The notes beneath the pieces were generated by a model that saw only the letters and a program-made list of their open reading frames with translations, ran no database searches and was not told the DNA's origin. From contig CP065011.1 of the NCBI GenBank assembly GCA_016699795.1, positions 290,474-354,473 on the forward strand: 64,000 bases of DNA, in the 5' to 3' direction. Numbering within the stretch: the stretch's first letter is position 1; every line of letters begins with the position of its first letter. A program made the translations under genes and the position numbers. Origin of the DNA: Candidatus Moraniibacteriota bacterium. Its GTDB lineage: Bacteria; Patescibacteriota; Minisyncoccia; Moranbacterales; GCA-2747515. Shown here piece by piece: positions 5,338 through 63,648 of this stretch.

Positions 5338-5493
5338 TCATTCTCTAAAAATTTCTTACCTTTCATCTTTTTATCTTTTGTTATATTTTCTCTGTAAAAA
5401 AGCTATTCTAAGGAGCTCATTCAAAAATAAAAAATGGACCGCATATTCCTTTTGAGAATATACGGTCTTTATCTTAGCACAGCTTATGACCTG

Positions 5494-6957: not shown

Positions 6958-7239
6958 TTTCCTTCAAAAACAAGCCGGTCTCCCTTTATAAAGAGGACCA
7001 TAAAAATAATTCCAAAAAAATTTACTTGTTGTTCGTGATTATTCATACAACATAGAATAAAAAACAAAGGGTTTCTTGTCAAATTTTGGACTCTGTAAAA
7101 AATAATGCGGTACTTACACAATGTATGTTTTTTTCTAGAAATTCAACATCAAGACATAAGTATACTCAAAAAATCTCAATAAAATCATATATTCATTTCA
7201 ATATCAAATACAAAAAAATTATTTTCATTATAAATAATT

Positions 7240-7521
7240 TTGAGTCTCTTCAGTTCTTTATTGCACAAAATTGTTAAAAATAATATAATTAGGAACATGG
7301 AAATAATACTATTCATAATAATCATTGTTCTATTTGTTTATTTTAATAACAAAATAAACAATATTGCTATTTTATCGGATAAACAAACAAAAGTGATTGT
7401 TGAATTTCTTATTTCAAAACTTCAAGAAAAAGACATTTTTAAAAATGATGAGGTTGATCATTTGTACCAAGAGATAAACCAAAAAATTAAAGAAGAAGTT
7501 AAGGTCAATGAATATAAATAA
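7240..7521 (+). CDS. Small hypothetical membrane protein (likely start 7297, MEIILFIIIIVLF)
   Basis: An AGGA sits just upstream of the 7297 ATG and one TM helix is predicted. It lies in an AT-rich, gene-poor 1.2-kb stretch. Confidence 0.25.
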   Translation: MSLFSSLLHKIVKNNIIRNMEIILFIIIIVLFVYFNNKINNIAILSDKQTKVIVEFLISKLQEKDIFKNDEVDHLYQEINQKIKEEVKVNEYK

Positions 7522-8146
7522 ACACAAATACTTGTCATAAATCAATTTAATAAATATGCATTTATGATAACAACATCAGAAATGAGGGGAAGAGAAGAAA
7601 AAAAATCAACAGAAAATCACTTCAAAGGAATGCCCAAAGAAGAAATTTCAGAGGAAATGAGGACTATTAAACTTATTAAGGCTGAAAACCCAAATAAAGA
7701 AACTCTGGCTACATTTTCAGCTGAGTTTATTTCAGTTCTTAATAAATCGGCGTTGAAAGAAGAAAAATTGGAAGGAAAAAAAGACTAACTTTCATATCCA
7801 ATACATTACTCTTCTGGAAGTATATCTTTGTTATCTTCAACAATAGAGCTTAGCCTATCCGTCAATTCTTTTTTTGACGAATATTTTTTATTTTCTAGAA
7901 AATTTTTTCTCTTCCCTCTATCCCACCTTCTTTTTCTCTTTCTTTCAAGAAAAAACCAACCTCAATAAAAAAATTCTGAAGTAATCTCTCGTTGTTCTTC
8001 CTGTATTACTTTAATTTGTTTGTAAACTTTTTTGGGAGAAAATTTTTTTCCGTTACTACGGATTTTCCCGTTTTTTGTTCTAAGGTCTTGCGTACATCCT
8101 TGGCGATTTTTCCTCAAGAAATTCACTCTTTTTACAAAAAACATTA

Positions 8147-41900: not shown

Positions 41901-44900
41901 GGGAATGGTGAGGTCTTGAGTGGAAGCATCAACAAGGAGGGAGGGATTGGTGGGAGTTTTTGTATCGAGGGTAAAGGTATTTGATTCAGCTCGTGCGATA
42001 TTATTCGCTCCTTCATTGTCACTTACGGTTACACGGATTTTTGCATTGGTAAGATAGAAAGATTCACTTACGAGAGAAGGAGTCCAGGTAGCACTGTGTG
42101 TTGTGTACGTATCTTGATTCACTGTTTTGTTTTGTATATCTTCGGGAGCTAGAGTATTGGAAGCGATATTGATCCAACTACTTCCATTGTAGTATTCAAA
42201 GCTCGGAGTAACTATTCCTGGAGTATTGGTTCCGGTATTGGTATCTTCATCTTTTGTTTCGTACGTGATAGTTACTGTTTTATCAGTATTGGGAGTAGTG
42301 GTTACATTTTGAATCATAGGGAAAGCATTCACAACATAGCCTACTTTTACATCATCGACTTGAGGTTGAGAAAGAAGGTCAGGAGAAGAAAGATCTACTT
42401 TGTATTGAAAGAAGCGATCTTCAAAGATATCTTTCATATCTTGAGGGATAGCACTGGCTGTGCAACTTACCGTTGTATTGTTTTTTGTACAATGTGTAGT
42501 AAGAGAAGAGGGAGTAGATTGTGCTATTTGTATCCAGGGGGAAGAAGAAAGATTTCCTTTCGTTCCTGCAGTTTTGAGAGAAAGAGTTACTGAAGAACCT
42601 GTTGGGAGTATTTCATTTTCTTTCCATTCTATTGTTCCCATGACATTAGCATCACTACTGGAATCAAATGCTGAAGAGATAAGAGAACCAGCAAGGTATC
42701 CAGATTTAAGTGAACCTGCGCTTCCATCAGTTGCAGGTGCGGTAGCTCCTTTTGTTCCTCCGAGTGTTTGAATCGTTTGATTGGTAAATGTTTTGTTTTC
42801 ATAGGCATAGGCGATTCTTCCTCCTCCCCCTCCTCCTCCACCACCTTGTCCCGCCCCACCATTGGCTTGAAGCTTTCCACCGTTTATGGTGAAGTTTTTT
42901 GCATAGAGTATGTTTATAGATCCTCCTGATCCTCCTCCACCATTGGTGAGTCCAGCGCTACCGTTACTGGATATGGTTCCATAGAGGTTGAGATTGTTAT
43001 TCGTTCTGATTCGTATATCTCCTCCTCCTGTTCCTCCTGTAGACTTTCCTCCTCCACTTCCAAGATCTTCGGGAACAAAGTCATTTCCATAGGTGTTAGG
43101 GGAAGTTGCTCCATCACTACTATTTCCTCCTCTTCCTCCATATGTTCCTCCTGATCCATATCCAAGAGAGCCTGTTGTTCCTGCTCCTGTTCCAAGAGTA
43201 GGAGTGTAACCTTTCGTGTTGGTGTTTATGGATGCTCCTGTACCACTTACTCCATGAATAGTGAGATTGGTAGAAATGAGAGTTCCTGTTCCATTGGCTA
43301 CTATGTGTGAGGTGTCAGTAGAAGAGTTAAGAGTTCCTATGGTTATGTCTCCTGTAGTGTTAAGAGTGGTTCCTGTAGGAATGGCAAGAAGTCCTTTGTT
43401 TTTTACAATGATGTTTCCGAGAGAGAGGGAGTTGTTGGTGAAGTTGTCTTGGGGGATGAGGGTTTGGGCTGAAGTGGAAATGTTGTTGTTGTCTATGGTG
43501 AGGGTGCCATTGTTGGGGCCTTGAGAGACAGTTTCAGTGTAGATGGTTCCGGCAGCTCCACCCACTCCAAATGATTGCATTGTTACTAATCCGAAATCGT
43601 TTCCAGAGGTAAGTTTGACAGCAATACGTCCACCGCCACCACCATAAGTAGTATTTAAAGATCCGTTTGTATTCATAGCACCAAAACCTGAAAATATTTC
43701 TGTAAAAATATTTATCGTACCACCAGAGCCACCAAAAATACCTGAAGAAGAGATAGCTCCGTTAAGTATTAACGTTCCAGAGATAACTAAAATAACAGAT
43801 CCCCCACCAGATCCATTACTATAGGAATAACCAGATCCTAAATTAATAGGATCTGATATTGATCCATAAGTTGAGCATCCGGAAGATCCTTGTCCTCCAT
43901 ACGCTGGAGTCCCGCAATATCCTGGACCACTTCCTTGTCCATACCCCTTCCCATTCACATTAATTTGTCCTCCAGTTTGAACATCGAGATTTCCTCCGAC
44001 ATCCATAAAGAGTCGGTGGGTTTCTGCATTTGTATTTGCTGTGTGGGTGAGGTAACCATTATTGAGAATCGTAACATTCCCAGTAACGGTGAATTTGTTG
44101 GTTGGGGAACCGTTACTAACAGTAAGAGTAGAAGTAGTAGATCCTCCTCCAAGAGAAAGGTTCCCTCCTATAGTTTGAGGTGCGGTTGTAGTAAGATAGA
44201 TTCCATTTATAGAAAGTGTTCCGGAAGAACTAAGAAGCGTTCCTCCATTTACATTGATTCCACTTGTTCCAAGTCCGTCATTAGTAATCGTTGCTCCCGT
44301 AAGATCAAGAGTGGTTCCTGTGGGAACACTGATTTGTCCTTTGTTTTTTAAAACTAGATTTTTAATGGTCCATGTTTGGGTGGATGGGATAGCGGTGAAA
44401 ACTGAGGTTGTTTGATTATTATTATCAATAATCACCGTTCCATTTCCCGATCCTTGACTTGCTGTTTCGGTGTAGATAGTACCGGCGGCAGTGCCCAATC
44501 CTCCATACGATTGGATAGTAAGAGATCCAAAATCATTTCCCGAAGTGAGTTTAACGGCAATACGTCCACCAGAACCATATCCGTAAGCACCTCCTGATGT
44601 TCCTGTGTAACCATTAGTATAAATACTTCCTGAACCTGAAATATTTGTTGTTGTAATATTAACAGATCCTCCAGAAGAAGGTCTGTCACTTGGGGAGTGT
44701 GCACTTGCAATAATTTGCCCATTAAGAATGGTTGATCCTAAAATATTAAGAATAACAGCCCCTCCCCCAATTGTATAATAAGCTCCTGTTCCAAGATTTA
44801 TAGGATTAGTAAGAGATCCATATGTTGGTCCTACTGAACTAGCCTGTCCCCCATAAGAGCAATTACCACTATTCAATCCGGGACCAGCATTATTGTATCC

Positions 44901-46406
44901 CTTTTCTTTTACATTAATTTGTCCTCCAGTTTGAACATCAAGGTTTCCGTTAAGTGTAAGATCCATTTTATAACTTTCAATATTTCCATTCGCACTGTGC
45001 GTCATATACCCACCAGATTTTACGGTAATGTTTCCCGTAATTGTTGTGGGAGAATCAATAATAAGTGCCCAATTTTGAATATTAAGATTTCCATCAGAAA
45101 GTAAAATTGCTCCCCCACGAAGCGCAATACCATTTATTGAGTTCGCAGCAATTCCTCCACCAACAACAGAAATATCATCTATATTTCCAAAAATTACTCC
45201 TGTTACCGAATTTTGATTATCTAAAGAAACTGTCGTTCCTGTAGGGACACCAAGAACTCCTCGATTTTTTACTATCAAATTTTTAATAATCCACGTCTGC
45301 CCTAAAGGAATAGCTGTTGTATAAAAAGTAGATTGACTATTATTATCAATAATCACTGTTCCATTTCCTTCTCCTTGACTTGCAGTTTCGGTATAGATAG
45401 TTCCAGCTGATCCATTCCCTGACCCACCAACGCCCCCATATGCTCGCATCACAATAGATCCAAAATCATTTCCCAAAGTGAGTTTAATAGCAATACGTCC
45501 ACCAGCACCTGATCCGTAAGTTTGAGATACTCCGTTTACTTGAAACAATCCAGATCCTGTGATGGTTGAAGTTGTAACATTTATAGAACCTCCCGAAGAA
45601 CCCCTATCACTAGGAAGTCGACCATTTGCAAGAATTTGTCCATTAATTATAATTGCTCCCGAAATATTCAAAATAACAACACCACCTCCATTTGAAACAG
45701 TATATCCACTACTTCCAAGATTTATAGGATTAGTAAGAGATCCGTATGTTGGTCCTAAACCAACTTGTCCTCCATGAGAACAATTACCATTATTTATTCC
45801 AGGACCACTACCAGCATACCCCTTCCCATCCACATTAATCTGTCCTCCGGTTTGAACATCGAGATTGCCTCCGACACTCATGAGAAGTCTATGCGTTTCT
45901 GTTGTGGTGTTTGCTGTATGCGTAAGATAACCATTGTTGAGAATCGTAACATTTCCTGTAACATTCAATTTTTTGTTTGTATCATTTCCGTTGTACCCAT
46001 TACTCATAGTAAGAGTAGAAGTTGATGCTCCTCCTCCAAGAGTAAGAGATTGTATAGTAATGGTTCCACCATTTACATCGAGTGTAGGTTGATTCGTTCC
46101 TGTGTAATTTATAACAACATCATCTGTGCTTGTAGGAACAGTTCCTGTATTCCAGTTCGTTACTGTAGTCCAAGCAGTGCTTGTTGTTCCTGTCCAGGTT
46201 ACAGTGGAAGCATGAGTAGGAGAAGAAAAAGAAAAAAAGGCTCCAAGACATCCGAGTAAGAGGGAGAGAGAAAAAGAAAAAAATGATTGTCTTTTTATGG
46301 TTGCTTCATGCATCTTTTTTCTTTTTGAAGTATCGAGGAGAACACTCTTAAAAGTACCACAGAAATACCTTTGGAACAAGAAGGAATTTATTTTCTGTGT
46401 GTGCAA
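38907..46406 (-). CDS. Giant secreted surface protein with beta-helix-like repeats and fibronectin-III-like modules
   Basis: 2499-codon ORF. The likely start is the ATG at 46313 (MHEATIKRQSFFSFSLSLLLGCLGAFFSFSSPTHA, a signal peptide). The first ~1000 aa are Gly/Asn/Thr-rich repeat modules (GGNLDVQTGGQINV[DN]GKGY..., GGRIAVKLTSGNDFG...TIYTETASQG), then 10 or more ~95-aa FN3-like modules (T.I.W.TDE.SDS.V.YG...........H.V.L..L.P.T.Y.FRV...D..GN). Confidence 0.8.
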   Translation of the reverse strand: MHTQKINSFLFQRYFCGTFKSVLLDTSKRKKMHEATIKRQSFFSFSLSLLLGCLGAFFSFSSPTHASTVTWTGTTSTAWTTVTNWNTGTVPTSTDDVVINYTGTNQPTLDVNGGTITIQSLTLGGGASTSTLTMSNGYNGNDTNKKLNVTGNVTILNNGYLTHTANTTTETHRLLMSVGGNLDVQTGGQINVDGKGYAGSGPGINNGNCSHGGQVGLGPTYGSLTNPINLGSSGYTVSNGGGVVILNISGAIIINGQILANGRLPSDRGSSGGSINVTTSTITGSGLFQVNGVSQTYGSGAGGRIAIKLTLGNDFGSIVMRAYGGVGGSGNGSAGTIYTETASQGEGNGTVIIDNNSQSTFYTTAIPLGQTWIIKNLIVKNRGVLGVPTGTTVSLDNQNSVTGVIFGNIDDISVVGGGIAANSINGIALRGGAILLSDGNLNIQNWALIIDSPTTITGNITVKSGGYMTHSANGNIESYKMDLTLNGNLDVQTGGQINVKEKGYNNAGPGLNSGNCSYGGQASSVGPTYGSLTNPINLGTGAYYTIGGGAVILNILGSTILNGQIIASAHSPSDRPSSGGSVNITTTNISGSGSIYTNGYTGTSGGAYGYGSGGRIAVKLTSGNDFGSLTIQSYGGLGTAAGTIYTETASQGSGNGTVIIDNNNQTTSVFTAIPSTQTWTIKNLVLKNKGQISVPTGTTLDLTGATITNDGLGTSGINVNGGTLLSSSGTLSINGIYLTTTAPQTIGGNLSLGGGSTTSTLTVSNGSPTNKFTVTGNVTILNNGYLTHTANTNAETHRLFMDVGGNLDVQTGGQINVNGKGYGQGSGPGYCGTPAYGGQGSSGCSTYGSISDPINLGSGYSYSNGSGGGSVILVISGTLILNGAISSSGIFGGSGGTINIFTEIFSGFGAMNTNGSLNTTYGGGGGRIAVKLTSGNDFGLVTMQSFGVGGAAGTIYTETVSQGPNNGTLTIDNNNISTSAQTLIPQDNFTNNSLSLGNIIVKNKGLLAIPTGTTLNTTGDITIGTLNSSTDTSHIVANGTGTLISTNLTIHGVSGTGASINTNTKGYTPTLGTGAGTTGSLGYGSGGTYGGRGGNSSDGATSPNTYGNDFVPEDLGSGGGKSTGGTGGGDIRIRTNNNLNLYGTISSNGSAGLTNGGGGSGGSINILYAKNFTINGGKLQANGGAGQGGGGGGGGGRIAYAYENKTFTNQTIQTLGGTKGATAPATDGSAGSLKSGYLAGSLISSAFDSSSDANVMGTIEWKENEILPTGSSVTLSLKTAGTKGNLSSSPWIQIAQSTPSSLTTHCTKNNTTVSCTASAIPQDMKDIFEDRFFQYKVDLSSPDLLSQPQVDDVKVGYVVNAFPMIQNVTTTPNTDKTVTITYETKDEDTNTGTNTPGIVTPSFEYYNGSSWINIASNTLAPEDIQNKTVNQDTYTTHSATWTPSLVSESFYLTNAKIRVTVSDNEGANNIARAESNTFTLDTKTPTNPSLLVDASTQDLTIPSTTSVLTLGVSDDSPTQMKISLDENLTNSPWEPFNATVTIKLETDPDIVYTRFKDQYGNETQTIHTTTPETPTRVISQDTSNMLLTPPEYRAFVGFKTIEEPPTGFGNYKLYRSDDATTYTLQNIITSRTTNFLTDATPQPDILYTYKAKTTDTPGNVSFFSQTVTMKANGIQDFGEGGGGSDQTPPVLQNVTVESKDTTTVTITWETDELSDSRVEYATTPNTYTKQTGVSTYADTQAQSGLHRVTLTNLTPNTPYFFRVASTDPQGNTGVNDNNGNGYEVTTNPGPSISGVAVSSASNTQATIFWNTNVPADSVLHYSENKNGSLIDPITLSGSSVLTKNHQVTLDALTQGTTYYFYVTSTDSQGNIANDNNGGNYFQFSTTLDETPPTITNLQTSLISNDKAVITANTDEEASFLLQYRKKGSLTFTQTEQGTTYDRSHYRVLDTLTPDTEYEYQVSVKDINQNESQSDIQTMKTTLDPEYNHAPLSKIHTISDPPKVLTDQKAVITFQTDQAANCILEYGTQSRNYQEVPQTEATGIYDTLHSLHLGGLIFNTTYFYKLLCEDNLGTLIESEEKSFTTKLKQVDSGSEQAESTPPSISGVKVKDITGESAVVSWETDEVSDSRVKYGTTKDLEYATIDSITGFDPTKYTTSHSVTLRGLIPSTKYFFSTGSSDTAGNIGTSSQQTFQTQSPSSISSIKASSKQIGETTITWKTSTPTTSIVEYGNTENYGQTRKSEELKKDHEIIINNLLENSTYHFRVKGEDESKNLFSSSDSTFEPKSPPQIKEIKIEVLSDREAKVNFLTDTLTDSLVTYKNKNKEEDQKSEGNPSLLQTHSLTLKELTPGENYVLTVRVRDDMGNETLSDEIEFTMQKDETSPTVERVSTDSALSQNGKVQMIINWQTDEDASSSLIYKEGRAGEEKTVNVSSSPTKNHIIVLTSWKPGTLYSYKVIVKDLSGNETITKDYITLTPQTKESVVELIIKNFKEIFAWTGG
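41486..43467. repeat. Copy B of the 1982-bp perfect duplicate, inside the complete giant gene
   Basis: Same evidence as copy A. Flanking sequence remains homologous but diverges. Confidence 0.85.
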
Positions 46407-50006: not shown

Positions 50007-51410
50007 TTACAATTTGAGAAGTTCCTTTATTTTCGCTTCTTCAATGTCAGGACCTATTGCTGAAAAATTTAATCGATCAGATTTGAAAATTTCCCTAGCA
50101 ACAAGCTTAATATCCTCCATTTTTACTCGATCCACACGTTTTACTATTGTATCTGGAAGTGTTATTTCGCTACGAAGAATTTCCTGATCTGCCAAAAATG
50201 AAGCTATGTCGTCACTGGATTCAAGTCCCATGGCCAAACTTCCTTTGAGATGTTCTTTCGCTTTTTTGAGCTCTTTAGCATCCACACCATTTCGGGCTAT
50301 TTTCTTGTATTCAGAAAGAATAACTTGTAATGCTTTTTCGAGATTTTTGTGTTCTACTCCACAATACGTCGCAAGATATCCAGCGTCATCATATGCCTCG
50401 ACTCCAGTACTCACACGATACGCAAGTCCCCGACGTTCACGGACCTGAATAAATAATCGACTCGACATTCCTCCTCCCAAAATTCCCGAGAGAAGAGAAA
50501 GTGCATAACGGTCTTTATGAAAACGATCGAATGTTCGTACTCCTACCATGAAATGAGTTTGATCGGTTTTTTTGTTTTTGATAAAAAGTTTGGGACTCTC
50601 TTGCGCATCATGTATTGTTTCGAAATGACGTGAGAAATTATTTGGAATATGAGAAAAGTTTTTTTCTATATATGAAAATGTTTTCTCTTGGTCAAATCCC
50701 CCTGCAACACACACGACAATATTCTCTGCTCGATATTTTTCATCCAGATACGACATGAAATCACTTCTCTTGAGATTTTTTATATTTTCTTCAGGGCCCA
50801 CAATATCCCAACCAAGAGGATGATCTCCGTAAAGAAGATTTTCAAAAATCTCCTCTACTCGACGTCCCGGCATATCTTCATACATTCGCATTTCTTGAAT
50901 AATGGCGCCTCGCTCTTTATTGATTTCTTTCGCTTCAAATTTAGCATTCAAAAAGACATCACTCATAATATCTAAAGCGGTATGTACATTCTCACTACTT
51001 GTTTTTGCCCAATAACCTGTTCGATCCTTTCCAGTAAACGCATTATACAATCCACCAATAGAATCAAGTTCTGTTGCAATATCAAGTGTTGTGGGACGCT
51101 TTTGTGTTCCCTTAAAAAAAAGATGTTCGAGAAAATGAGATATTCCATTATTTTCTTTTGTCTCATAACGAGATCCTGTTCCCGTAAGAATAAGTACTGT
51201 TGCTGTGGGAGCTTCTTTTACAGGTGCCAAAATAACACGAAGTCCGTTTTTTAATATTCTTTTTTCGTAATGCATATATGTATGATTATTCCTTATACTG
51301 AAAGACAATTGTAAATCTTCTTCATCACTTTGTCCATATTCAAAATATCGTCGTTCGCCTTTGAATGCTACGGCCTTTAAAAAAAATAAAGGTATTTTCT
51401 TCTTTCTCAC
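50007..51410 (-). CDS. M16 (pitrilysin) family zinc peptidase (likely start ~51278, MHYEKRIL)
   Basis: Inverted zinc motif HFLEHLFFKGT...E, plus the M16 N and C domains. Confidence 0.75.
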   Translation of the reverse strand: MRKKKIPLFFLKAVAFKGERRYFEYGQSDEEDLQLSFSIRNNHTYMHYEKRILKNGLRVILAPVKEAPTATVLILTGTGSRYETKENNGISHFLEHLFFKGTQKRPTTLDIATELDSIGGLYNAFTGKDRTGYWAKTSSENVHTALDIMSDVFLNAKFEAKEINKERGAIIQEMRMYEDMPGRRVEEIFENLLYGDHPLGWDIVGPEENIKNLKRSDFMSYLDEKYRAENIVVCVAGGFDQEKTFSYIEKNFSHIPNNFSRHFETIHDAQESPKLFIKNKKTDQTHFMVGVRTFDRFHKDRYALSLLSGILGGGMSSRLFIQVRERRGLAYRVSTGVEAYDDAGYLATYCGVEHKNLEKALQVILSEYKKIARNGVDAKELKKAKEHLKGSLAMGLESSDDIASFLADQEILRSEITLPDTIVKRVDRVKMEDIKLVAREIFKSDRLNFSAIGPDIEEAKIKELLKL

Positions 51411-53939: not shown

Positions 53940-54140
53940 TCGAATAAAGATCTCTTCTTATTCTTTCTTCTCTTTTTCTACTATACCTGAAAACTTCTCT
54001 CAAGAGAAATTAAATAAGAAATTCTCTTGAAAAATAAAAATATTTTTTCTTTATTACTAGCGTTTATCCATGCAATATGCGGTCTACTGTATACTTTAAT
54101 TTAGAGCCCTTGTTTTGTTTTACGATTATTTTCCGACTTT

Positions 54141-54725
54141 TCATACTATTCCAAGTTCTTTCATTTTTTTGAGAGCTTTTGCTATATTTGAATTATCCTC
54201 AAGAACAGTATCTATATCCGTCCATATAAAATCGGAAACTTCATTTTGATCAAGCGAAACACTACCTTTTTCTGTGAAAAAAATAAACATGAGATCATGG
54301 TGATAATGTGCGTCTTCCTGTTTTTTCTCGTTTTCGGGAATAGGATGTGTATCAATAAGAATTGGTGATCCAGTTTTTTTGTGCCACGGGTGTGGCTTAA
54401 TATCATTCAATCCCGCTTCTTCGATCACTTCTCGCTTCGCTGAATTTTCGAGATCCCGGTCTTCATTTTCGATATGTCCTCCAGGCTGAAGATACCTTTG
54501 TAATTTTTTGTGAAAAAGAGCTAAGACCTTTCTCTCTGGAGAAATAACCAATCCACTTGCAGTAATGTGCCCTCGAAAATTCTTTCTGCTGAATATATCT
54601 TCGTCAGACTGCATCTGTTCTAAAAGAAGAGAGAATTTCTTTTTTTCTTCAGGAAATAATGAAAGGTAATTATCAAATAAAATTTTTGCATCTTCTTTTA
54701 CAATCATATTTCTTATCTTAAACAA
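54141..54725 (-). CDS. Nudix hydrolase
   Basis: Nudix box GGHIENEDRDLENSAKREVIEEAGL (REUxEExGU). Confidence 0.7.
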   Translation of the reverse strand: MFKIRNMIVKEDAKILFDNYLSLFPEEKKKFSLLLEQMQSDEDIFSRKNFRGHITASGLVISPERKVLALFHKKLQRYLQPGGHIENEDRDLENSAKREVIEEAGLNDIKPHPWHKKTGSPILIDTHPIPENEKKQEDAHYHHDLMFIFFTEKGSVSLDQNEVSDFIWTDIDTVLEDNSNIAKALKKMKELGIV

Positions 54726-55878
54726 TTACTCCGAGAAACTTTTTCAACCAAGCATCAGCGATTCTTGAACGAATACTTTCTGGTCCTTCTTGGATACCAT
54801 TAGGCAGATTCTCGCTTTGTAAATACGTGATAGTATCCAACATTTCTTTCTGTACAAGCAAAATAAAATCATCCACTACCGCACCATGAAGAAAATTAAC
54901 GGCATTTCCTTTATTAAGAAGATAGAAATAATGCCCGTTTTTTTCATAAAGTGAAATGTATTTTGCTATCTTTTTCTCAGTGTAATTCATTTCAATCCAC
55001 GAGATATCCATTTCATCATCCGAAGAAGTAACCGACGCCACAAAAGAACCGTTTTTCAACAGCTTGAACTCTTCACCTTTAAGAGCAAGTTTTCCTGTGG
55101 CACAGAAAACTATATCGGATTCTTCAATAATTTTTATCTTTTTTACAATCTTATTTCCTTTTGAATAAGCTAATACCATAATAACTGGATCAGTATCATA
55201 AATAGAGACGTCACAACCCTTATCATGTAAAGATGATAAGATTCCATTACCTATTTTTCCAAATCCGATAATGCCGACCTTTTTATTGTTTATAAGAATT
55301 CCTTGTTCTCTCAGGAGAGATTCAGTTGAAAATACAACAGCCTGTCCCACAAGATGATCTTCATTACTTTTAAGAGGACTTTGTGCCACAGAAACAACTG
55401 GACAATCAAGAGAAAGCTGGGATAAATATTTTTGATGTCCATTTTCTGTGTCTTCTATAATTCCGAGAAATCTTTTTCCTAGAATTTTCTTTATATCACT
55501 GGCTATTGTAGAAAAGTATCCGCCTATATCAAGAATAACTAATGAATTTTCAGAAGGGATTTTTTCAAGGACATTTCTAATAGCGTTTATAGATCTCAAA
55601 TCATCTTTTGTTATAGAAAGAATTTTCTCTCTTGGATAAAATTCTATTATACTTTCGTTGATCGAATTTCTTTTTGGGATAATTCCTTCTAATAAAAAAT
55701 ATTTCTCAAGTATTTTTGCAAATGGTATACCCGTATCTAGTATGTGCATTACAGCTATAACACTTATCCTTTTTGTGTCGCAAATTGATCTTAAATAATT
55801 ATCATCAAAAAAAATTTCTCTTTGAGCAATTTTTTTCTCAAGAATTATAGTATTTTCCATAAGTATTATTTTATACAA
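54718..55878 (-). CDS. S-adenosyl-L-homocysteine hydrolase-like protein, divergent (likely start 55860)
   Basis: Spacing and motifs parallel AdoHcyase. HILDTG (cf HMTIQTAVLIETL) comes first, then ILDIGGYF (cf DDGGD) and IIEDTENGHQKYL (cf EETTTGVHRLY). KSNEDHLVGQ (cf KSKFDNLYG) and the Rossmann VGIIGFGKIGNG...YDTDP follow. The block ends in VTSSDDEMDI where AdoHcyase has NIGHFDNEIDV. A 2-hydroxyacid-dehydrogenase-like Rossmann enzyme cannot be excluded. Confidence 0.45.
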   Translation of the reverse strand: MYKIILMENTIILEKKIAQREIFFDDNYLRSICDTKRISVIAVMHILDTGIPFAKILEKYFLLEGIIPKRNSINESIIEFYPREKILSITKDDLRSINAIRNVLEKIPSENSLVILDIGGYFSTIASDIKKILGKRFLGIIEDTENGHQKYLSQLSLDCPVVSVAQSPLKSNEDHLVGQAVVFSTESLLREQGILINNKKVGIIGFGKIGNGILSSLHDKGCDVSIYDTDPVIMVLAYSKGNKIVKKIKIIEESDIVFCATGKLALKGEEFKLLKNGSFVASVTSSDDEMDISWIEMNYTEKKIAKYISLYEKNGHYFYLLNKGNAVNFLHGAVVDDFILLVQKEMLDTITYLQSENLPNGIQEGPESIRSRIADAWLKKFLGVIV

Positions 55879-55939
55879 TAGAACTTCTTCGTATGCCCAT
55901 CACCAAATTTTATAGATATCCAAAATTAAAATATTTCTT

Positions 55940-56995
55940 TTAAATATTGTTCGTTATTTCTTCAACAACAATTTCTGGTTTTCTTATTTGCTTCTCCCCT
56001 ATTAACTGATAAATTCTTCTTTTAGAAATAAATAAATTATTTCTTTTTAGCTTAGGATCCCTTCCGAGAGTTACCAAATTAAACGAATAAAACTTATCTT
56101 TTTCTAAATAAAACTTTCCAAAAATATCATTTTCAGTTATTACATCTGAGATACACTCAATAAAACTCTTTTTTCTCTTTTGGATTATTTTGAAAGAACC
56201 ATGGATTTCAAATTGAGAAATATCTTCTTTTTCTGGATATAATCCTGTTTCTATTTCTAAGTCCATCATCCCATCAAAATCTTTATATTCTTTAACATCT
56301 AATACATCTTTTCTCATTCCATCTTTAGAATAAAATGACTTGGATTTTTTTTCTTCAAATAAATTTGTTTCATACATATTCATTCCACGTTCAAAAGGAT
56401 AAGCAAATTTTTCTAAATCATTTGATGAAATAATAAATTCAATCTTGCATTCAGCATTCAAGTTTGCAAATTTTTGAAATATCTCACTTTTACTTTTATC
56501 CTCTATTTCTTTCAAAAACATTCCTGTTAAATCTGTTGTTTTTGGATTATTATTTATTGTTTGTGATCGAATAGACGCATAGATCATATATACTCGTTTA
56601 CTTCCCGCACTTCTTTTTATTGTATTAAATTGTTCTTCTGTAAGACCAATCCAGCGATCATTTTCAGACGTATTTTTAATTTCTACAAATAAATTTGGGT
56701 TTCTTAGATCTCCATTTTCCTTAATATGTAAAATATCAGGCTCGTCCATTACTTGCGTATTACTTTTAATATCAAAGTCGAGAATATAAAGCTTGTTTTC
56801 ATTAAATTCAGTAAAAATCTTCTCTATGCCAATTTCAGTGAGTTTTCCTAATGTAAAAGCATCTAGTATAGCTCCTAATCCCCTTGGCTCACCAGTTGTT
56901 CTTCCTGTGGTATTTTTTAAAGGGTCGATATAATAATTTGTTCCAAATTCAAAAACTCTTTTAAAATCTTCTAATATAAGTTTATAATATTTCAT
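55940..56995 (-). CDS. Putative type II restriction endonuclease (PD-(D/E)xK candidate)
   Basis: Lies 15 nt downstream of a C5-MTase on the same strand. Candidate catalytic core ILDFD...(33 aa)...FVEIK. No other family resemblance. Confidence 0.4.
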   Translation of the reverse strand: MKYYKLILEDFKRVFEFGTNYYIDPLKNTTGRTTGEPRGLGAILDAFTLGKLTEIGIEKIFTEFNENKLYILDFDIKSNTQVMDEPDILHIKENGDLRNPNLFVEIKNTSENDRWIGLTEEQFNTIKRSAGSKRVYMIYASIRSQTINNNPKTTDLTGMFLKEIEDKSKSEIFQKFANLNAECKIEFIISSNDLEKFAYPFERGMNMYETNLFEEKKSKSFYSKDGMRKDVLDVKEYKDFDGMMDLEIETGLYPEKEDISQFEIHGSFKIIQKRKKSFIECISDVITENDIFGKFYLEKDKFYSFNLVTLGRDPKLKRNNLFISKRRIYQLIGEKQIRKPEIVVEEITNNI

Positions 56996-57010
56996 AATAT
57001 TTATTAAAAA

Positions 57011-57961
57011 TTACTCTAAAGCTTTTTTTATATTTTTAGCAATTCTCCTAACAACTGGTATTACCACAGAATTACCAAACTGTTTATAAAGAGCTGAATC
57101 TGCAATTTTTGGAAGTTTATAATTTTTTGGAAATCCCTGAAAGTTTGCACATTCTCTAGGTGTGAGCTTTCTTATTCCCTGATCAGTAAATATAATTGGC
57201 ACATTATGACCACCCATCCCCATATTTGCTGTTAATGTTGGGCAAACTTTACTTTTATTTTCTCTCACATACTGCCTTCTCCATTGATAAATAGTATCTT
57301 TTTTTGTGACATCTTTTTTTATCCTTTCAAATAATGGCTTGTCATTATAAAAATATTTTTTATCTACTACTATCTCTAAACAATCATTAATCGTTTTTGT
57401 TAAAGTGATTTTTTTAGGAAATTTAAATTTCTCGAAAGACTTTTCTTCAAGAAATCCAACGATATAAATTCTTTCTCTATTTTGAGGAATGTTCCCATAT
57501 TGCATTGCATTTAAAACTTTATCAGTTACTTTGTACCCCAATTTTTCTAATTCCTGATATATTACTTTTATTGTATTACCTTTGTCATGAGATTTTAAAT
57601 TTTTTACATTTTCAAGTAAGAAGGCTTTTGGCTTTTTATCTTTTAAAATACGAATAATATCAAAAAAAACATTCCCTCTTCCCTTTTCATCTTTAAACCC
57701 TTGTCTATATCCCGCAATAGAAAATGGCTGACAAGGAAATCCTCCTGTTAGGATATCAAAATCTGGAATATTTTTTGTAGAAATTTGAGAAATATCTCTT
57801 AAAACCATTTGCTTATCTATTTCAAATAATCCTGAAAAATTTAAATCAAAGGTTATTCTACAGTTATTATCAAAATCATTTGAAAAAACACAATCAAAAC
57901 CAGCGTCTTCGAATGCTATTTTTATTCCACCAATTCCTGCAAATAAATCTATAAATTTCAT
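57011..57961 (-). CDS. DNA (cytosine-5)-methyltransferase
   Basis: Motif I FAGIGG, motif IV GFPCQPFSIAG, motif VI LLENV and motif VIII QNRERIYIVG. Confidence 0.85.
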   Translation of the reverse strand: MKFIDLFAGIGGIKIAFEDAGFDCVFSNDFDNNCRITFDLNFSGLFEIDKQMVLRDISQISTKNIPDFDILTGGFPCQPFSIAGYRQGFKDEKGRGNVFFDIIRILKDKKPKAFLLENVKNLKSHDKGNTIKVIYQELEKLGYKVTDKVLNAMQYGNIPQNRERIYIVGFLEEKSFEKFKFPKKITLTKTINDCLEIVVDKKYFYNDKPLFERIKKDVTKKDTIYQWRRQYVRENKSKVCPTLTANMGMGGHNVPIIFTDQGIRKLTPRECANFQGFPKNYKLPKIADSALYKQFGNSVVIPVVRRIAKNIKKALE

Positions 57962-57998
57962 CTGTGTAAGAATATTTATTTACATTCTAACTCTACTT

Positions 57999-58814
57999 TT
58001 ATAAATCAATCAAATAAAATTGAGGATTTTCTTCGGATACATCAATAACAATATTTCTATGAGCAAAATCCCTCATATCGAAAGCATTCCCTTCAGAAGA
58101 ATGTTCTAACGCTCCTTGTATTTTTTTAAATTGTTCATCTACAAAACTTTCTATTTGACTAGCATCTGAAATTATCCCTTTTTCTATTAATATTTCGACA
58201 GTACGATTTACCGTATTATCAAAGCTTCCATCTTTTTGATATTGCTTTAATTTACCCAAGTCAACGCCATCTCCCACAAAAGGCATAAGTACATAACTAC
58301 AAATATCCGCTTTTCGAGTAAAAGCTCCGGCACCGACAGCAACATCGGTTTGCTGATTATCAAATGAAATTTTTTGTTTTCGCCTACCCCATTCATCTTC
58401 TGGAAGATAAGGAGGCTCGATCAATGCTACATAATCGATAAAGCGTATATTTTCTGGAAAAGAAGAGTCATTCTGTGTGTACTTTTTCCATTTTTCATGT
58501 TCCTTCATAAGTTCTTTTCCATCACTTTTTTGTTCTTTGAGAATATACGATCCACTTTTTAAAACATAGACCGAGCCATCACTTCCCGTGTGTAATTTTT
58601 CCGGTTTTTCTTGCATAAAACTATGACCATCTTCAAATATAGTTTGGATTTCTTCGGAATCAAGTTTTTTTGCGTCTGAAGTTATATATAAAGTTCCTTT
58701 CTCAAACGTAAATTTTTTCCACACCCAATCATTCTCCCGTTCCTGTTCTTGTATTTTTTCTTGTGTTTGTTTTTGTGCTTGTTCAAGATCATTCATTTTT
58801 TCGGAAGAAAGCAT
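57999..58814 (-). CDS. Hypothetical protein with weak kinase-like catalytic-loop resemblance
   Basis: The C-terminal segment FAHRNIVIDVSEENPQFYLIDL resembles atypical-kinase (RIO/Kdo-like) HxDLxxxNILI...IDF elements, with a Gly-rich VAVGAGAF upstream. The stop lies 37 nt before the MTase start. Speculative. Confidence 0.3.
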   Translation of the reverse strand: MLSSEKMNDLEQAQKQTQEKIQEQERENDWVWKKFTFEKGTLYITSDAKKLDSEEIQTIFEDGHSFMQEKPEKLHTGSDGSVYVLKSGSYILKEQKSDGKELMKEHEKWKKYTQNDSSFPENIRFIDYVALIEPPYLPEDEWGRRKQKISFDNQQTDVAVGAGAFTRKADICSYVLMPFVGDGVDLGKLKQYQKDGSFDNTVNRTVEILIEKGIISDASQIESFVDEQFKKIQGALEHSSEGNAFDMRDFAHRNIVIDVSEENPQFYLIDL

Positions 58815-58879
58815 ATTTTTTATTTAATGCTACGATATCAAGTAGCTGTTTATAATTATATCTTTATCTCTAACATTCT

Positions 58880-58918
58880 TATATAGTATACAGTATATAA
58901 TATACTGTATACTATATA
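58880..58918. repeat. 39-bp perfect palindrome (19-nt arms around a single central base)
   Basis: tatatagtatacagtatat a atatactgtatactatata. I checked this base by base. It lies in the divergent intergenic region upstream of the kinase-like/MTase cluster. Confidence 0.85.
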
Positions 58919-59343
58919 CTTTTTTGGAGAAAATGCTTCCTAAAAGTTAAAATATTTTTAAGCGCCACCTATCCGTACAAAATACTGTGTCGGAATTATC
59001 GCTTTAGATTTCAACACCTCATTAGCAGAAAACACGCACAAGAGAGTTTCTTCGTTTTTTTGAGAAGCTATTTTTATTTTATAGACAAAAGCATTTCCTC
59101 TATGTTTTTTGAGAAAGTCCAACTCATTTCGAGAAAGGTAAAAAAAGACATCAACCCCCTTTTTTTCTACTTATTATCTATGTTGTATTGTAAAGGTATA
59201 GCAACCTTGGTAAAGTAAGATAATAAAAGATTAAAAAAATTAGTTTTACCATGGATAAAAATTGGCATAATTCTAAGAAAAAAAACATTTGCTGTATTTT
59301 TCCAATAACAAAAGTTAAAATATAAATAATTAGGCACACCTTT

Positions 59344-60156
59344 ATGAATAGTTTTGAACAGTTTAATACAAAAATAAATAGAGCTCGGATTGTGATTATT
59401 TTCTGTATTACATTATTTATTGTATTTCTAATAAATCAACTGCCTATAAATAAAAATCAAGAAAATATAAAAACTCCTGATCCAATTAAAGAAAAAATGG
59501 AAACTAAAGAATCTCCATCAATATCAACGATAGAAGATCTTACATTTAATACTCCAGAAGAAATAGCTACATGGATACAGAATAATCCGAATGACCCAAG
59601 AATAAACGAAGTCAAGCAAAAATTTAAATCAATGGGATATTCCATAGAAGAATTTACAAAAGATCAAGAAGCACCACAAGCAACAGATCCTTCTGATAGA
59701 GCATTGAAAGCATCTTTATTTTGGTATAATAATATACCAAAAGAGAGGCAGGATAAAATGAAACAGACATGGGGGGGCGGATCTGATGATCATTATGTTG
59801 CGGTCAAAAACTTCGCAATAGCTTTAGATACGAAAAGAGAATGGTTAATCGATGTGGAATTAATTATCGAGGAATATAAATCTAAACAGAATACTAGTTA
59901 TACACAGCCATCTACTAAAAACCCAAAAACAATACCCTCTAATGAAAATTCGAATTCAGAATTGGATGATATGATTCAAGAAAGTGAAAGAAAAAAGACT
60001 GAAAAATGTCAACGGGATCTTGCTGAATATAACGCTTGTTTAACTGAATATAATGCAGAAATGGCGGAATATAATGCATGTTTAAATCAAGATAATCCTT
60101 ACAAATATTGTTCAAAACCATTCGGGTCTTTTTGTGTTAAGCCCTTTTGTTTCTAA
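59344..60156 (+). CDS. Hypothetical membrane-anchored protein with Cys-containing C-terminal repeats
   Basis: N-terminal TM helix. The C-terminus reads LAEYNACLTEYNAEMAEYNACLNQDNPYKYCSKPFGSFCVKPFCF. Confidence 0.4.
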   Translation: MNSFEQFNTKINRARIVIIFCITLFIVFLINQLPINKNQENIKTPDPIKEKMETKESPSISTIEDLTFNTPEEIATWIQNNPNDPRINEVKQKFKSMGYSIEEFTKDQEAPQATDPSDRALKASLFWYNNIPKERQDKMKQTWGGGSDDHYVAVKNFAIALDTKREWLIDVELIIEEYKSKQNTSYTQPSTKNPKTIPSNENSNSELDDMIQESERKKTEKCQRDLAEYNACLTEYNAEMAEYNACLNQDNPYKYCSKPFGSFCVKPFCF

Positions 60157-60263
60157 TTGATATTCATAAAAGAAGTCATTATTATTCTTATTATTTTAGA
60201 GCTATTCTATTTTTTAGAGAGACTACTTTATACAAGCCAAAATATTTTCTCAAATACCTACTA

Positions 60264-61043
60264 TTATTGTTGTCGTATAGTTTTGTGATATTGTTCTAAA
60301 ACATTATTTATCGCTTGCATCATTTTACTAGAAAGACGCAAGCATCGTTTTAGCTGAATATCTACAGAATCATCCTTGCCAAAATATTTTTCAAGATATC
60401 CTTGTATCGCAGCGTCGGCATAGTAATGCCTACTTTCCAAAACTTTACTATGATTTATTGATCTATACGCATATCTTTTTTCATCAGAAAGATTATCTTG
60501 AAAAAAAAATTTTCTATACCCCTCCACCAATCTCTTGTTTGTTTGATAGTGAAAAGAGGTATTATTTCTCACATCACGAATAATTTCAACTAAATCTCGT
60601 ACCCACAAAACCTCTTGAGGAATATCAGAGAAATTCTTCTTTCTGGTATTTTTTTGAAGAATAAGCAAGATATGTTTCCAAGTACTTTGTGTATCCTCAT
60701 TTGTTTTTTGAATGAAGCTCTGAATATAAGACGATTCAATCATAGATATTTTTTTCGTCATATAATTACAAACTTCGTAGAGCGTGCCAATATACAACCT
60801 CAGAATATGCAAACGAATACCGCCATATTCTCCCGCATGTACTGAAATCTCTTTTTCCTCTGGCTTCTTGCAGCTTTCTACAAAAAGATCATTAAGAAGT
60901 ATAATGTCTTTAAGATCATTAAACATCAAAGAGAAAGTTAAAAGAATTTCTTTTTCTTCTTGATATTGTATTCTTTCCTCCTTTTGTGGAAAAATATCTT
61001 CGGCAAAAAACTTTTGCAGTTTTTTATTTATAAACTCTTTCAT
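60264..61043 (-). CDS. Hypothetical protein
   Basis: 259-aa ORF with no recognisable family. An Rx5H (RNNTSFH) motif suggests, very tentatively, a HEPN-like fold. Confidence 0.4.
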   Translation of the reverse strand: MKEFINKKLQKFFAEDIFPQKEERIQYQEEKEILLTFSLMFNDLKDIILLNDLFVESCKKPEEKEISVHAGEYGGIRLHILRLYIGTLYEVCNYMTKKISMIESSYIQSFIQKTNEDTQSTWKHILLILQKNTRKKNFSDIPQEVLWVRDLVEIIRDVRNNTSFHYQTNKRLVEGYRKFFFQDNLSDEKRYAYRSINHSKVLESRHYYADAAIQGYLEKYFGKDDSVDIQLKRCLRLSSKMMQAINNVLEQYHKTIRQQ

Positions 61044-61322
61044 TGAATTCTACTTTTTCAATATCTCATACTGTTTATAACAGTCTTCTTTTTCTTTTTC
61101 TACACTCTCAATCATTTCATCCCATATGATCTTTTGTCCTTCGTATTTTTCCATAATTTTTTTAGTATTCTCAGTATTTTTTTCTTCAATTTTTTGTAGA
61201 CAAATCAACAACTTCTCTTTTTCTAAATTTTATAGATAAGTATTTATTCATAAAGAATTTTTACGAAAAAATTAAAAAACATTATTCGAATTTTATGAGT
61301 GATAAGAATGGGGATACGAATC

Positions 61323-61940
61323 TTATCTCTTCTTTCCCGATATAATCTCGTAAGTATAGGTAAAATCACTATTTGGATCTACTTTTTTCATATAAAATTC
61401 CTCATTAAAATCCATGAAACTATTTTCGTAAATAACATTTGTTAATTCTTCGTCATGTTCATCGAATTTATTTCCTTCGCTATCAAAAAAATCTATCTTA
61501 ATGCTTAATTTTTCAATTGGATAAGAATTATTATTTTGGATCTTTCCCGTTATCGCAAACTTATTCCCATAATGAGTATTATACGCGTTATACGGATCAG
61601 AAGATTGCTCTAATTGAAAACTTAAAAGAGAGAGTTTATCGGCATCAATAGTATTTCGATCACTTTCTTCATTGAGGGTGTTTTGTATTACCTCTTCTCT
61701 TTTTCGATTTTCTGCTTGAATATCAATCGCACCTCTGCTTTTTGCACATACCTCAAGAAGAAATTCCTTTTCATTCGTTGACTTTGCGGATAAATAATCT
61801 GGGGATTTTTGAAGGGCATCTAGACATTCTTTATAAGCATTTCTTTCCATATGGGGTTGTATAATTAGAACATGCATTAAAATTGCAACGACAATAATTA
61901 TGCCAATAAGCAAGAGTGTCTTGAATGTAGTAGTCTTCAT
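61323..61940 (-). CDS. Hypothetical membrane-anchored protein
   Basis: 205-aa ORF with an N-terminal TM helix, then a soluble domain. Confidence 0.4.
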   Translation of the reverse strand: MKTTTFKTLLLIGIIIVVAILMHVLIIQPHMERNAYKECLDALQKSPDYLSAKSTNEKEFLLEVCAKSRGAIDIQAENRKREEVIQNTLNEESDRNTIDADKLSLLSFQLEQSSDPYNAYNTHYGNKFAITGKIQNNNSYPIEKLSIKIDFFDSEGNKFDEHDEELTNVIYENSFMDFNEEFYMKKVDPNSDFTYTYEIISGKKR

Positions 61941-62235
61941 ATTCCTTTAATTTTAGGTAATTAGTGTAAAACATAATCAAAATAGATATAAATGAACAAC
62001 TTGAAAAGATTTTCGTTTCTATGGTTACATTGGAAGTCCGCTCATCTCTTGCATTATAGCACCACTTATTTTTCACTTGTAATTCTCAATCCTTCCTCCA
62101 ACTCCTCCACCTTTACTCTCTTTTGCTCCAATGCTTTTTTAAAAGCGATATTTTCAACATTCATTTCCATTTAAAATTCAAATTATTTTTTAATTATCAC
62201 CTTTTTATTTTATAAAAAATAGAGGTTTATTTCTC

Positions 62236-63648
62236 TCAAATATTTTGTGTAAAAAATTCTTGCAAACTTTCAATAGAAATTCGTTTTTGTTCCATACTGT
62301 CACGATCACGGACAGTAACGGTATCGTCATTGAGAGTGTCAAAATCTATAGTTACACAATACGGTGTTCCAATTTCATCTTGTCGACGATATCGTTTTCC
62401 CACATTGCCATTATCATCAAATTCACATATCCACCTATCTCGAAGAAGATCGAAAACTCCACGAGCTTTATCCACTAATTCCATCTTATTTTTCAAAAGA
62501 GGGAAAATAGCAATTTTTACAGGAGCAAGTTTTTTGGGAAGACGAAGAACTGTTCGAACATCTCCTCCTTCCATCTCTTCTTCTGTATACGCATCGGTCA
62601 AAACTGCCAAAAACATTCGGTCCAATCCCACAGATGTTTCAACAATCCAAGGTAAATATTTTTCATTCGTATACGGATCACGATAACTCAAATCTTTTCC
62701 AGAAAATTTACTGTGTTGAGTAAGATCATAGTCACTCCTATTATGAATACCTTCAAGTTCTTTAAAACCAAAGGGAAAATTGTATTCAATATCCCACGCT
62801 GCTTTAGCGTAAAATACAAGATTTTCATGTTCATGCCATTTTAGATTCTTTTCTTGTATGCCAAGATCAAGATAAAACTGCCACCTCTTTTCTCGCCACT
62901 CTTCATAAACTTCCGATGCTTCCTCTGGACGTACAAAATATTGCATCTCCATTTGTTCGAACTCACGTTTTCTAAAAATAAATTGGCGAGCCGTAATTTC
63001 ATTACGAAAGGCTTTACCTATTTGTGCTATACCAAAAGGTACTTTCATCCGCGTACTATCCAAAACATTTTTGAAATTTACATAGATTCCCTGGCAGGTT
63101 TCTCCTCTAAGATAGGTTGGCTGTTTCGCCCAATCTCCGGTAAAATTTCCTAGATTAGATTGGACCAAAAGATTAAATTTTTTCGCATCAGAAAAGTCCT
63201 TTCCCCCACATTTCGGACATACTATTTTCTCTTTAACACTTTCAAAAAGTTTTTGTATTTCTTCTTCGCTCATTTTTTCATCAGCAAAGACTCTTGCGTC
63301 TTCCAATGCATGATCCACACGTATTCTCGTATGACATGTCTTACATTCGCTCAAAGGATCGCTAAAACCATTCACATGACCAGAGGCTTCCCAAACTTTA
63401 GGATGCATAAAAATAGCGCTATCAAGCCCTACAATGTTTTCATGAGTTTGTACCATTGCCTTCCACCACGCATCACGAATATTTCGTGCAAGCTCAACAC
63501 CATACGGACCAAAATCATAAACAGCAGCAAATCCTCCATAAATTTCACTCGAAGGAAAAACAAAACCACGACGCTTAGCAAAAGAAACAATTTTATCCAT
63601 AGTATCCATAAAATATTGTGCTACAAATATATTTCCAATGTACGACAA
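62236..63648 (-). CDS. glyQS: Glycine--tRNA ligase (alpha2 type; likely start ~63600-63609)
   Basis: N-terminus VSFAKRRGFVFPSSEIYGGFAAVYDFGPYGVELARNI, class II motifs, and a C-terminal anticodon-binding domain. Confidence 0.85.
   Translation of the reverse strand: MSYIGNIFVAQYFMDTMDKIVSFAKRRGFVFPSSEIYGGFAAVYDFGPYGVELARNIRDAWWKAMVQTHENIVGLDSAIFMHPKVWEASGHVNGFSDPLSECKTCHTRIRVDHALEDARVFADEKMSEEEIQKLFESVKEKIVCPKCGGKDFSDAKKFNLLVQSNLGNFTGDWAKQPTYLRGETCQGIYVNFKNVLDSTRMKVPFGIAQIGKAFRNEITARQFIFRKREFEQMEMQYFVRPEEASEVYEEWREKRWQFYLDLGIQEKNLKWHEHENLVFYAKAAWDIEYNFPFGFKELEGIHNRSDYDLTQHSKFSGKDLSYRDPYTNEKYLPWIVETSVGLDRMFLAVLTDAYTEEEMEGGDVRTVLRLPKKLAPVKIAIFPLLKNKMELVDKARGVFDLLRDRWICEFDDNGNVGKRYRRQDEIGTPYCVTIDFDTLNDDTVTVRDRDSMEQKRISIESLQEFFTQNI

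Follow-up and report, generated by a model that had tools for sequence, protein, structure and literature searches.

Does the juxtaposition of a restriction-modification (R-M) gene pair with genes for an S-adenosylhomocysteine (SAH) hydrolase-like protein and a Nudix hydrolase reflect a single functional system? The question is raised by five neighboring minus-strand genes, here called g1 to g5, in a 64,000-nucleotide stretch of contig CP065011.1 of a Candidatus Moraniibacteriota bacterium (assembly GCA_016699795.1, positions 290,474 to 354,473), which in its entirety is referred to below as the window. They encode a 271-aa minimal protein-kinase-like orphan (g1, 58814..57999), a 316-aa C5-cytosine DNA methyltransferase of the Dcm family resembling HhaI (g2, 57961..57011), a 351-aa protein that is putatively a Type II restriction endonuclease, its predicted PD-(D/E)xK core consisting of D87, E105, and K107 (g3, 56995..55940), a 386-aa NAD-binding enzyme of the SAH hydrolase superfamily (g4, 55878..54718, its likely true start being the ATG at 55860), and a 194-aa Nudix hydrolase (g5, 54725..54141, with the likely true start at the ATG at 54707). 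An earlier note, made from the letters of this DNA, had read the five as a co-directional cluster in which an R-M module is joined to the SAH hydrolase-like/Nudix pair as a new defense architecture. We conclude instead, with a probability of roughly 0.85, that three independently inherited units lie side by side: a mobile R-M module (g2 and g3), a conserved g4-g5 module, and the lineage-restricted g1. On the comparisons described here, the locus is best viewed as an R-M cassette and g1 inserted beside a conserved, misannotated SAH hydrolase-like/Nudix module.

In support of this reading, the points at which DNA homology to other contigs stops coincide with the borders of each module. The closest relative of g4-g5 (contig L101) is 79% identical to window positions 55861-54138, covering g4 and g5 only, with homology ending at the g4 start and the g5 stop; another (L012) contains a block 84% identical to 57958-55920, which is exactly g2 plus g3; a third (L016) matches 58721-58000 and thus g1 only. 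In two syntenic Moranbacteria loci (L029 and L032), glycyl-tRNA synthetase (GlyRS), a fused Nudix::SAH hydrolase-like gene (5431-7086 in both), and an M16 peptidase are encoded back to back, with the fusion being the counterpart of window positions 54141-55878. The two flanking genes serve as synteny anchors, both on the minus strand of the window: GlyRS (62236..63648) is 77% identical to the L029 GlyRS encoded directly 5' of the fusion gene, and the M16 peptidase (50007..51410) is 53-54% identical to the product of the gene directly 3' of the fusion in L029 and L032. Between GlyRS and g4, the window carries ~6.3 kb of low-GC DNA that is absent from the syntenic relatives. Located in this variable stretch (55920..62235) are g1, the two R-M genes, and three orphan genes (205 aa, 259 aa, and, on the plus strand, 270 aa), and its GC content is 0.27-0.31 compared with 0.354 for the entire window.

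The g4-g5 pair recurs widely. Scanning one genome per species retrieved the g4 family from at least 566 species genomes, and gene neighborhoods were counted for the best 80 of these at least 566 loci with flanks of 6 kb. A g5-type Nudix gene lies immediately 3' of the g4 homologue in 72 of the 80 loci and is fused upstream in another two (74/80 total), while Nudix fusions, with the Nudix domain at the N-terminus, constitute 24 of the top 120 g4 protein clusters. No homologue of g2 or g3 was found within 6 kb of the g4-family gene at any of the 80 loci, and six independent metagenomic contexts of the pair are all devoid of R-M genes. Its settings include positions beside tRNA synthetases, within an ATP-synthase operon, within a ribosomal-protein operon, and on a Streptomyces chromosome. 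In Patescibacteria, DPANN archaea, and Actinobacteria alike, g4-family genes are paired with a Nudix gene. Neighbors of the pair vary between Patescibacteria loci, some of which display NDK, Ham1, HIT, or extra Nudix genes nearby; a GntR regulator lies upstream in just 7 of the 80 loci; and open reading frame (ORF) clustering in 85 loci found no consistent third gene, longest-ORF calling being unreliable in high-GC actinomycete DNA.

Individual arrangements of the g4 family were also noted. At L010 (6201-10382), the pair is accompanied by Ham1, an additional Nudix, and an ABC ATPase, and the group interrupts a ribosomal-protein operon beside a second, short S8 gene, and at L008 (8200-12343), it sits between the genes for the ATP synthase c and b subunits. 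At four Neptuniibacter loci (L041, L073, L083, and L088, ~6001-7720), the gene after the SAH hydrolase-like gene encodes a SpoU-family RNA methyltransferase and not a Nudix hydrolase.

Judged from its homologues, g2-g3 is a mobile Type II R-M cassette that is horizontally inherited, in line with the pairing proposed in the earlier note. The assignment of g2 as a C5-cytosine methyltransferase held firmly: PF00145 covers residues 1-313 of 316 (E=1.8e-93), TIGR00675 is matched at E=8e-101 (338 bits, cut-off 100.65) and the PADLOC profile MTase_II at E=2e-122, and the m5C motifs DLFAGIGG, GFPCQPFS, and ENVKN are readable in the sequence. The closest solved structure is M.HhaI (225 bits, full length). 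HhaI-type specificity was considered and rejected because the target-recognition region of g2 is not conserved relative to M.HhaI. Palindrome avoidance gave nothing informative about the target, the 64-kb window being too small for this purpose (GCGC occurs 48 times against 43.5 expected).

The g3 start lies 15 nt past the g2 stop codon, as had been noted, and g3 belongs to a family of 161 homologues of ~351 aa that are all either unnamed or labeled 'NO VEIN domain'. In this family, D73, D87 (in EPD), and K107 do not vary and E105 hardly does, in line with the PD-(D/E)xK-like core read from the sequence. PF13020 (NOV_C), which we take to belong to the PD-(D/E)xK clan, is matched by 22 of 32 family members (best E=5.9e-6). 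A search of solved-structure sequences with g3 returned no match. The AlphaFold2 model (pLDDT 91.7) retrieved through Foldseek the PD-(D/E)xK nucleases Hjc, the SPARDA nuclease, R.SwaI, and HincII in local (~90 columns), weak (E>=5e-3) alignments, with Hjc resolvases at prob 0.8-0.97 and no competing non-nuclease family, the alternative that the earlier note had said would count against a nuclease. We therefore offer the putative PD-(D/E)xK restriction endonuclease as a reasoned assignment for this previously unannotated family. A Dcm methyltransferase gene lies directly 5' of the g3 homologue in 4/4 loci examined (L012, L013, L014, and L015), and methyltransferase and nuclease co-vary in identity (83/90% and 77/68%), the pair recurring as a two-gene block in unrelated genomes; the SAH hydrolase-like/Nudix pair adjoins none of the g3-homologue loci examined. 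The lowest GC and GC3 (third-codon-position GC) of the region also belong to g2 (0.281 and 0.167) and g3 (0.270 and 0.18). In such a cassette, Dcm-type methylation by g2 would shield host DNA, and the g3 nuclease would cut unmethylated incoming DNA.

At L012 (4803-6518), the nearest relative of the R-M cassette, the methyltransferase is called as a 571-aa product with an N-terminal RadC/UPF0758 domain, and the cassette there was either inserted in frame behind radC or is truly fused to it.

The third unit, g1, is reasonably described as a lineage-restricted minimal kinase-like protein. No match was found in Pfam, NCBIfam, or PADLOC, and among 1.84 billion representative proteins searched exhaustively, only 16 relatives came to light, which occur in other contexts that contain no R-M or SAH hydrolase-like genes. 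Twelve family members share G77/G80 (Gly loop), K93-E94, D249-x4-N254, and D270, and the family proteins all end at the equivalent of the DFG Asp. The kinase-like resemblance suspected earlier is reasonable in light of these motifs and of the predicted fold: all 50 top Foldseek matches of the AlphaFold2 model (pLDDT 83.8) are kinase-like, including APH(2''), WaaP (prob 1.0), and Lpg2603, at weak scores (E ~3e-3, TM ~0.3). Assignment of this previously unannotated family as minimal kinase-like is likewise a reasoned one. One member (P0250, 575 aa) possesses an N-terminal extension of ~300 aa.

Several observations weigh against three independent units or against parts of that description. Compared with the syntenic fusion, the window g4 and g5 are 44% and 38% identical, split, and in the opposite domain order, despite the 77% identity of GlyRS, and on this ground, the window g4-g5 may itself be a replacement of the fused subtype at the same site. 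Transcription may read through from g3 into g4 across a gap of 61-79 nt. Proteobacterial members of the g4 family are encoded without an adjacent phosphohydrolase. The fold matches of the g3 and g1 models are weak (E>=5e-3 and E>=3e-3, respectively), and the substrate and chemistry suggested below for g4 and g5 derive from residue conservation and partner genes alone. Finally, copies of a short motif, the 11-mer AGTATACAGTA, bracket exactly the five-gene block and could hint at a common boundary.

This last point is the starting place for an alternative in which the block is one mobile island, bounded by AGTATACAGTA and acquired in a single event. A perfect 19+19-nt palindrome (39 nt, an inverted repeat with 100% complementarity; 58880..58918) lies 66 nt upstream of g1 and has the 11-mer as its core; a third copy occurs on the minus strand at 54085..54095, 46 nt 3' of the g5 stop. 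No further exact copy occurs in the 64 kb, where 0.43 would be expected at <=1 mismatch, and the different subtype of the window g4-g5 would also suit a joint arrival. We nevertheless regard a single island as very improbable. Neither the block nor the motif recurs at any other locus: the palindrome motif was not found in 100 related loci, its 31-nt core was not found in metagenome contigs, and its 17-mer half-site gave scattered single matches, none of them near homologues of the five proteins. The nearest relatives of g1, g2-g3, and g4-g5 each have unrelated flanks, the GC content of g2-g3 (0.27-0.28) departs from that of g1, g4, and g5 (0.31-0.34), no integrase or transposase is present, and the significance of the motif placement (~0.01) is post hoc. 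The palindrome and its 11-mer may act as an operator, may resemble a terminator, or may be a chance occurrence.

Homology of g4 to SAH hydrolases is unquestionable from the profile and sequence searches: PF00670 is matched at E=6.7e-18, the best solved-structure matches (phmmer) are all adenosylhomocysteinases (E=7.5e-23), and the g4 family profile aligns with solved SAH hydrolases over both domains (E=1e-30), including positions 40-371 against the Thermotoga maritima enzyme (E=1.4e-29). The earlier description of a divergent adenosylhomocysteinase-like protein was thus sound. A two-domain fold with an NAD-binding Rossmann domain is supported, with GFGKIG and D228 conserved. Judged over 28 members, the family invariants are H45, K69, S72, IPKxxS, LDIGGYF, EDTENG, ARSxLKxxED, K170, E173, D174, GxGKxG, D228, VTSxDDE, and GNAxNFxH.

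The catalytic residues of canonical SAH hydrolases, which, partly on the strength of AgmF mutagenesis (PMC8599513), we take to be His55, Asp131, Glu156, Lys186, Asp190, and His301 (human numbering), are preserved selectively. Retained in g4 are the NAD site (GxGxxG) and the ribose-contacting Lys186 and Asp190, present as K170 and D174. Throughout the family, Asp131 is replaced by I118 (LDIGGY), His301 by Ser (S285/S286, in SSDDE), and Thr158/Thr159 by E145/N146; further changes in g4 are Glu156 to D143 and Asn80 to Lys, and K69, R166, and R190 are new basic residues. The motif reading in the earlier note was accordingly correct for SSDDE in place of GHFD and for the K...D spacing, and incorrect for two motifs said to be kept, where DDGGD is LDIGGY and EETTTGVH is EDTENGH. 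Because the Asp131 and His301 positions are invariantly replaced, g4 is, by its sequence, not a canonical SAH hydrolase; it is presumably active, a conserved enzyme with a pocket rebuilt around the 5' substituent and not a decayed SAH hydrolase.

Public annotation says otherwise, labeling g4-family members 'adenosylhomocysteinase', and the two-domain SAH hydrolase fold with its retained Lys and Asp would suit a housekeeping SAH hydrolase that has a Nudix neighbor incidentally. Such an identity appears very unlikely. Against the adenosylhomocysteinase models of NCBIfam, g4 falls well short of the cut-offs (92 bits where the equivalog NF004005 requires 275; 80.3 where TIGR00936 requires 497.6), and the two catalytic replacements run through the whole family. 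In SAH hydrolases, a C-terminal tail reaches the NAD of the neighboring subunit; no equivalent of this tail was found in the g4 family, and the last residue of g4, 386, aligns to 416 of the 445-residue 6aph. The Nudix and HD-domain partners and the fusions argue for a nucleotide-type substrate, and the less divergent AgmF already does not use SAH (PMC8599513).

The dedicated partner of g4, g5, was correctly recognized as a Nudix hydrolase carrying REVIEEAGL (PF00293, E=1.1e-8; 35.6 bits, cut-off 21.1). Set against the reference pattern GX5EX7REUXEEXGU, its Nudix box reads GGHIENEDRDLENSAKREVIEEAGL, with REVIEE intact and a middle spacer of 9 residues instead of 7. The g5 family conserves PGGHxE..D...RE..EE.G followed by P121, H127, N132, E137, and HxHxD, and the best solved relative is the Nudix protein 3fcm (E=3.8e-9). 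The 8-nt overlap of g4 and g5 reported earlier proved to be an artefact of a mechanically chosen TTG start: both the homologues and the DNA homology set in at ATG codons, 54707 for g5 and 55860 for g4, so that 10 nt separate the two genes.

Defense-specific searches recognized one of the five proteins. With PADLOC (PADLOC-DB v2), only g2 was identified; g1, g3, and g5 were without a match, and g4 gave one spurious E1-E2 match (E=0.011). The idea of a new defense architecture, in which a g4-g5 pair removing or sensing SAH or modified nucleotides would work together with the R-M module, has next to no standing: the five genes are adjacent on one strand, no terminator is predicted between g3 and g4, and SAH is the by-product of the methyltransferase reaction, but R-M genes accompany the pair at 0/80 loci and the pair is absent from every g3 locus examined, DNA homology blocks do not extend past module borders, D131 and H301 of the canonical enzyme are missing from g4, which also misses the adenosylhomocysteinase cut-offs by far, PADLOC offers no valid match for g3, g4, or g5, no g4 homologue was found in the phage collection, and the pair resides in housekeeping contexts among tRNA synthetase, ribosomal-protein, and ATP synthase genes. 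The pair is a conserved set of neighbors elsewhere without R-M genes, an outcome that the earlier note had itself named as refuting; the central defense idea is not supported, and with the proposed architecture failing, the locus is not to be counted as a novel immune system. What had been observed was largely correct; the functional interpretation is not supported.

What, then, might g4 and g5 do together? Their conserved features suggest that the g4 substrate is nucleotide-derived and that its chemistry is NAD-assisted ribose chemistry of the SAH hydrolase type. The partner changes with lineage yet stays a nucleotide phosphohydrolase, either Nudix or HD, which points to a nucleotide-derived substrate, as do the NDK, Ham1, HIT, or extra Nudix genes near the pair in some Patescibacteria, and the retention of the Lys/Asp pair that oxidizes the 3'-OH, together with the new basic residues, points to such a substrate and to ribose chemistry. 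In this scheme, the g5 Nudix would hydrolyze a nucleoside-diphosphate-type compound, and g4 would transiently oxidize, in an NAD-dependent manner, the ribose either of that compound or of its product, with K170/D174 binding and oxidizing the ribose 3'-OH and the 4'/5' end being altered; the phosphohydrolase reaction would immediately precede or follow the g4 step. The pair would accordingly be a nucleotide/nucleoside processing step and not a defense function.

Plasmids of Firmicutes display the other form of the partnership. In 49 of them, the g4-family gene is accompanied by a translationally coupled HD-domain phosphohydrolase gene, and these members carry all signature motifs of the family. 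On a Lactiplantibacillus plantarum plasmid (NZ_CP023175.1; L222 3961-7158), an operon encodes an MFS transporter, the HD protein, and the SAH hydrolase-like protein. A Staphylococcus epidermidis plasmid (NZ_CP121498.1; L223 662-8502) combines the pair with a PyrE-like phosphoribosyltransferase, a Nudix protein, a pyridoxal phosphate (PLP) enzyme, an M24-family protein, an HpaB-like monooxygenase, and two MFS transporter genes, a run that looks like a small, undescribed nucleoside-type biosynthetic cluster. Full-text literature searches found no description of an SAH hydrolase-like/Nudix or SAH hydrolase-like/HD pair. We tentatively put forward, as a possibility that we ourselves hold to be somewhat doubtful, that the SAH hydrolase-like protein and its phosphohydrolase constitute an undescribed two-enzyme pathway that makes from a common nucleotide, or destroys, a sugar-modified nucleoside through NAD-assisted chemistry at the ribose 3'/4'/5' positions, with the versions on the L. 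plantarum and S. epidermidis plasmids, which have MFS exporters and a phosphoribosyltransferase for company, leading to a secreted nucleoside analogue and the R-M adjacency being coincidental.

Such discovery value as the locus has, and it has some, lies in the g4-g5 module only. In hundreds of genomes, g4-family proteins are labeled 'adenosylhomocysteinase' despite the loss of key catalytic residues and the association with a nucleotide phosphohydrolase, and SAH hydrolase activity credited to Patescibacteria, DPANN archaea, and actinomycetes in metabolic reconstructions on the basis of this family is probably wrong. For those seeking new enzymes of nucleoside chemistry, the pairing or fusion with Nudix and the swap to HD on plasmids make the family a clean target that can be put to the test.

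The surroundings of the five genes add little. The ORFs exist as originally described, and their shared direction is uninformative, given that the minus strand of the 64-kb window holds all but two of the 30 ORFs of >=220 aa (28/30); the gaps between g1 and g2 (37 nt) and between g3 and g4 (61-79 nt) are both ordinary. A scan of the region for promoters and terminators gave signals at chance level only, with no terminator predicted in the g3-g4 gap, and no Rfam families or tRNAs were found in the window. The plus-strand 270-aa orphan (59344-60156) displays a Cys-rich C-terminus with repeated AEYNACL-like units and has no family match. Further away, a 2499-aa minus-strand ORF (38907-46406) has raised GC (0.40-0.42) and a GC skew that turns positive, unlike most of the window.

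Among known systems, g2-g3 compares most directly with Type II R-M systems built on HhaI-like m5C methyltransferases. Shared are the full-length, ten-motif Dcm fold of g2, a nuclease gene placed 15 nt 3' of it, putative PD-(D/E)xK catalytic residues, and mobility as a two-gene cassette. The differences are that the target-recognition region of g2 is unlike that of M.HhaI and that g3 falls into an unnamed family that has no solved or named relative and a weak NOV_C/DUF3883-type similarity. The resemblance of g1 to WaaP, aminoglycoside phosphotransferases, and Lpg2603 extends to the Gly-rich loop, the Lys, D-x4-N, the Asp at the end, and, as predicted, a bilobal fold of the kinase type; it differs from protein-kinase-like enzymes in having no activation segment or C-lobe helices and no Pfam family. 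The g5 protein aligns with 3fcm ('Hydrolase, NUDIX family') across an N-terminal extension (R..GH.T.S) and the Nudix box. Both this entry and 1jrk ('Nudix homolog') bear generic names with no function given, and g5 differs from them in two extra Nudix-box residues and the conserved downstream HxHxD.

For g4, the obvious comparison is SAH hydrolase (AhcY, EC 3.13.2.1), with which it shares two domains, the GxGxxG motif, an acidic residue (D228) at the end of beta-2, and the ribose-contacting K170 and D174 (= K186 and D190). It differs in its ~25% identity and scores below the family cut-offs, in the change of TTT to TEN and the absent tail, and in the replacement of Asp131 by Ile, of the GHFD His301 by Ser, and of Asn80 by Lys; the g4 family as a whole differs in its Nudix or HD partner gene. 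A second comparison is AgmF from angustmycin biosynthesis, an SAH-hydrolase-like NAD-dependent dehydratase that does not accept SAH and uses tightly bound NAD+ to modify a nucleoside sugar in a pathway that includes a phosphoribosyltransferase and a phosphatase (PMC8599513). The canonical catalytic residues are all intact in AgmF (H56, D129, K184, D188, and H299; PMC8599513), whereas the counterparts of Asp131 and His301 are gone from the g4 family, and no biosynthetic cluster surrounds the window g4-g5. This less divergent paralogue provides a precedent for a non-SAH substrate in the superfamily, and the S. epidermidis plasmid cluster is of similar make-up. In cordycepin synthesis, a redox enzyme and a nucleotide phosphohydrolase (Cns1/Cns2) act successively on one nucleotide (PMC10710699). 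The two have no sequence relationship to g4 and g5, so that the parallel is one of analogy only, and it consists in the g4 family likewise being paired with a phosphohydrolase, be it Nudix or HD.

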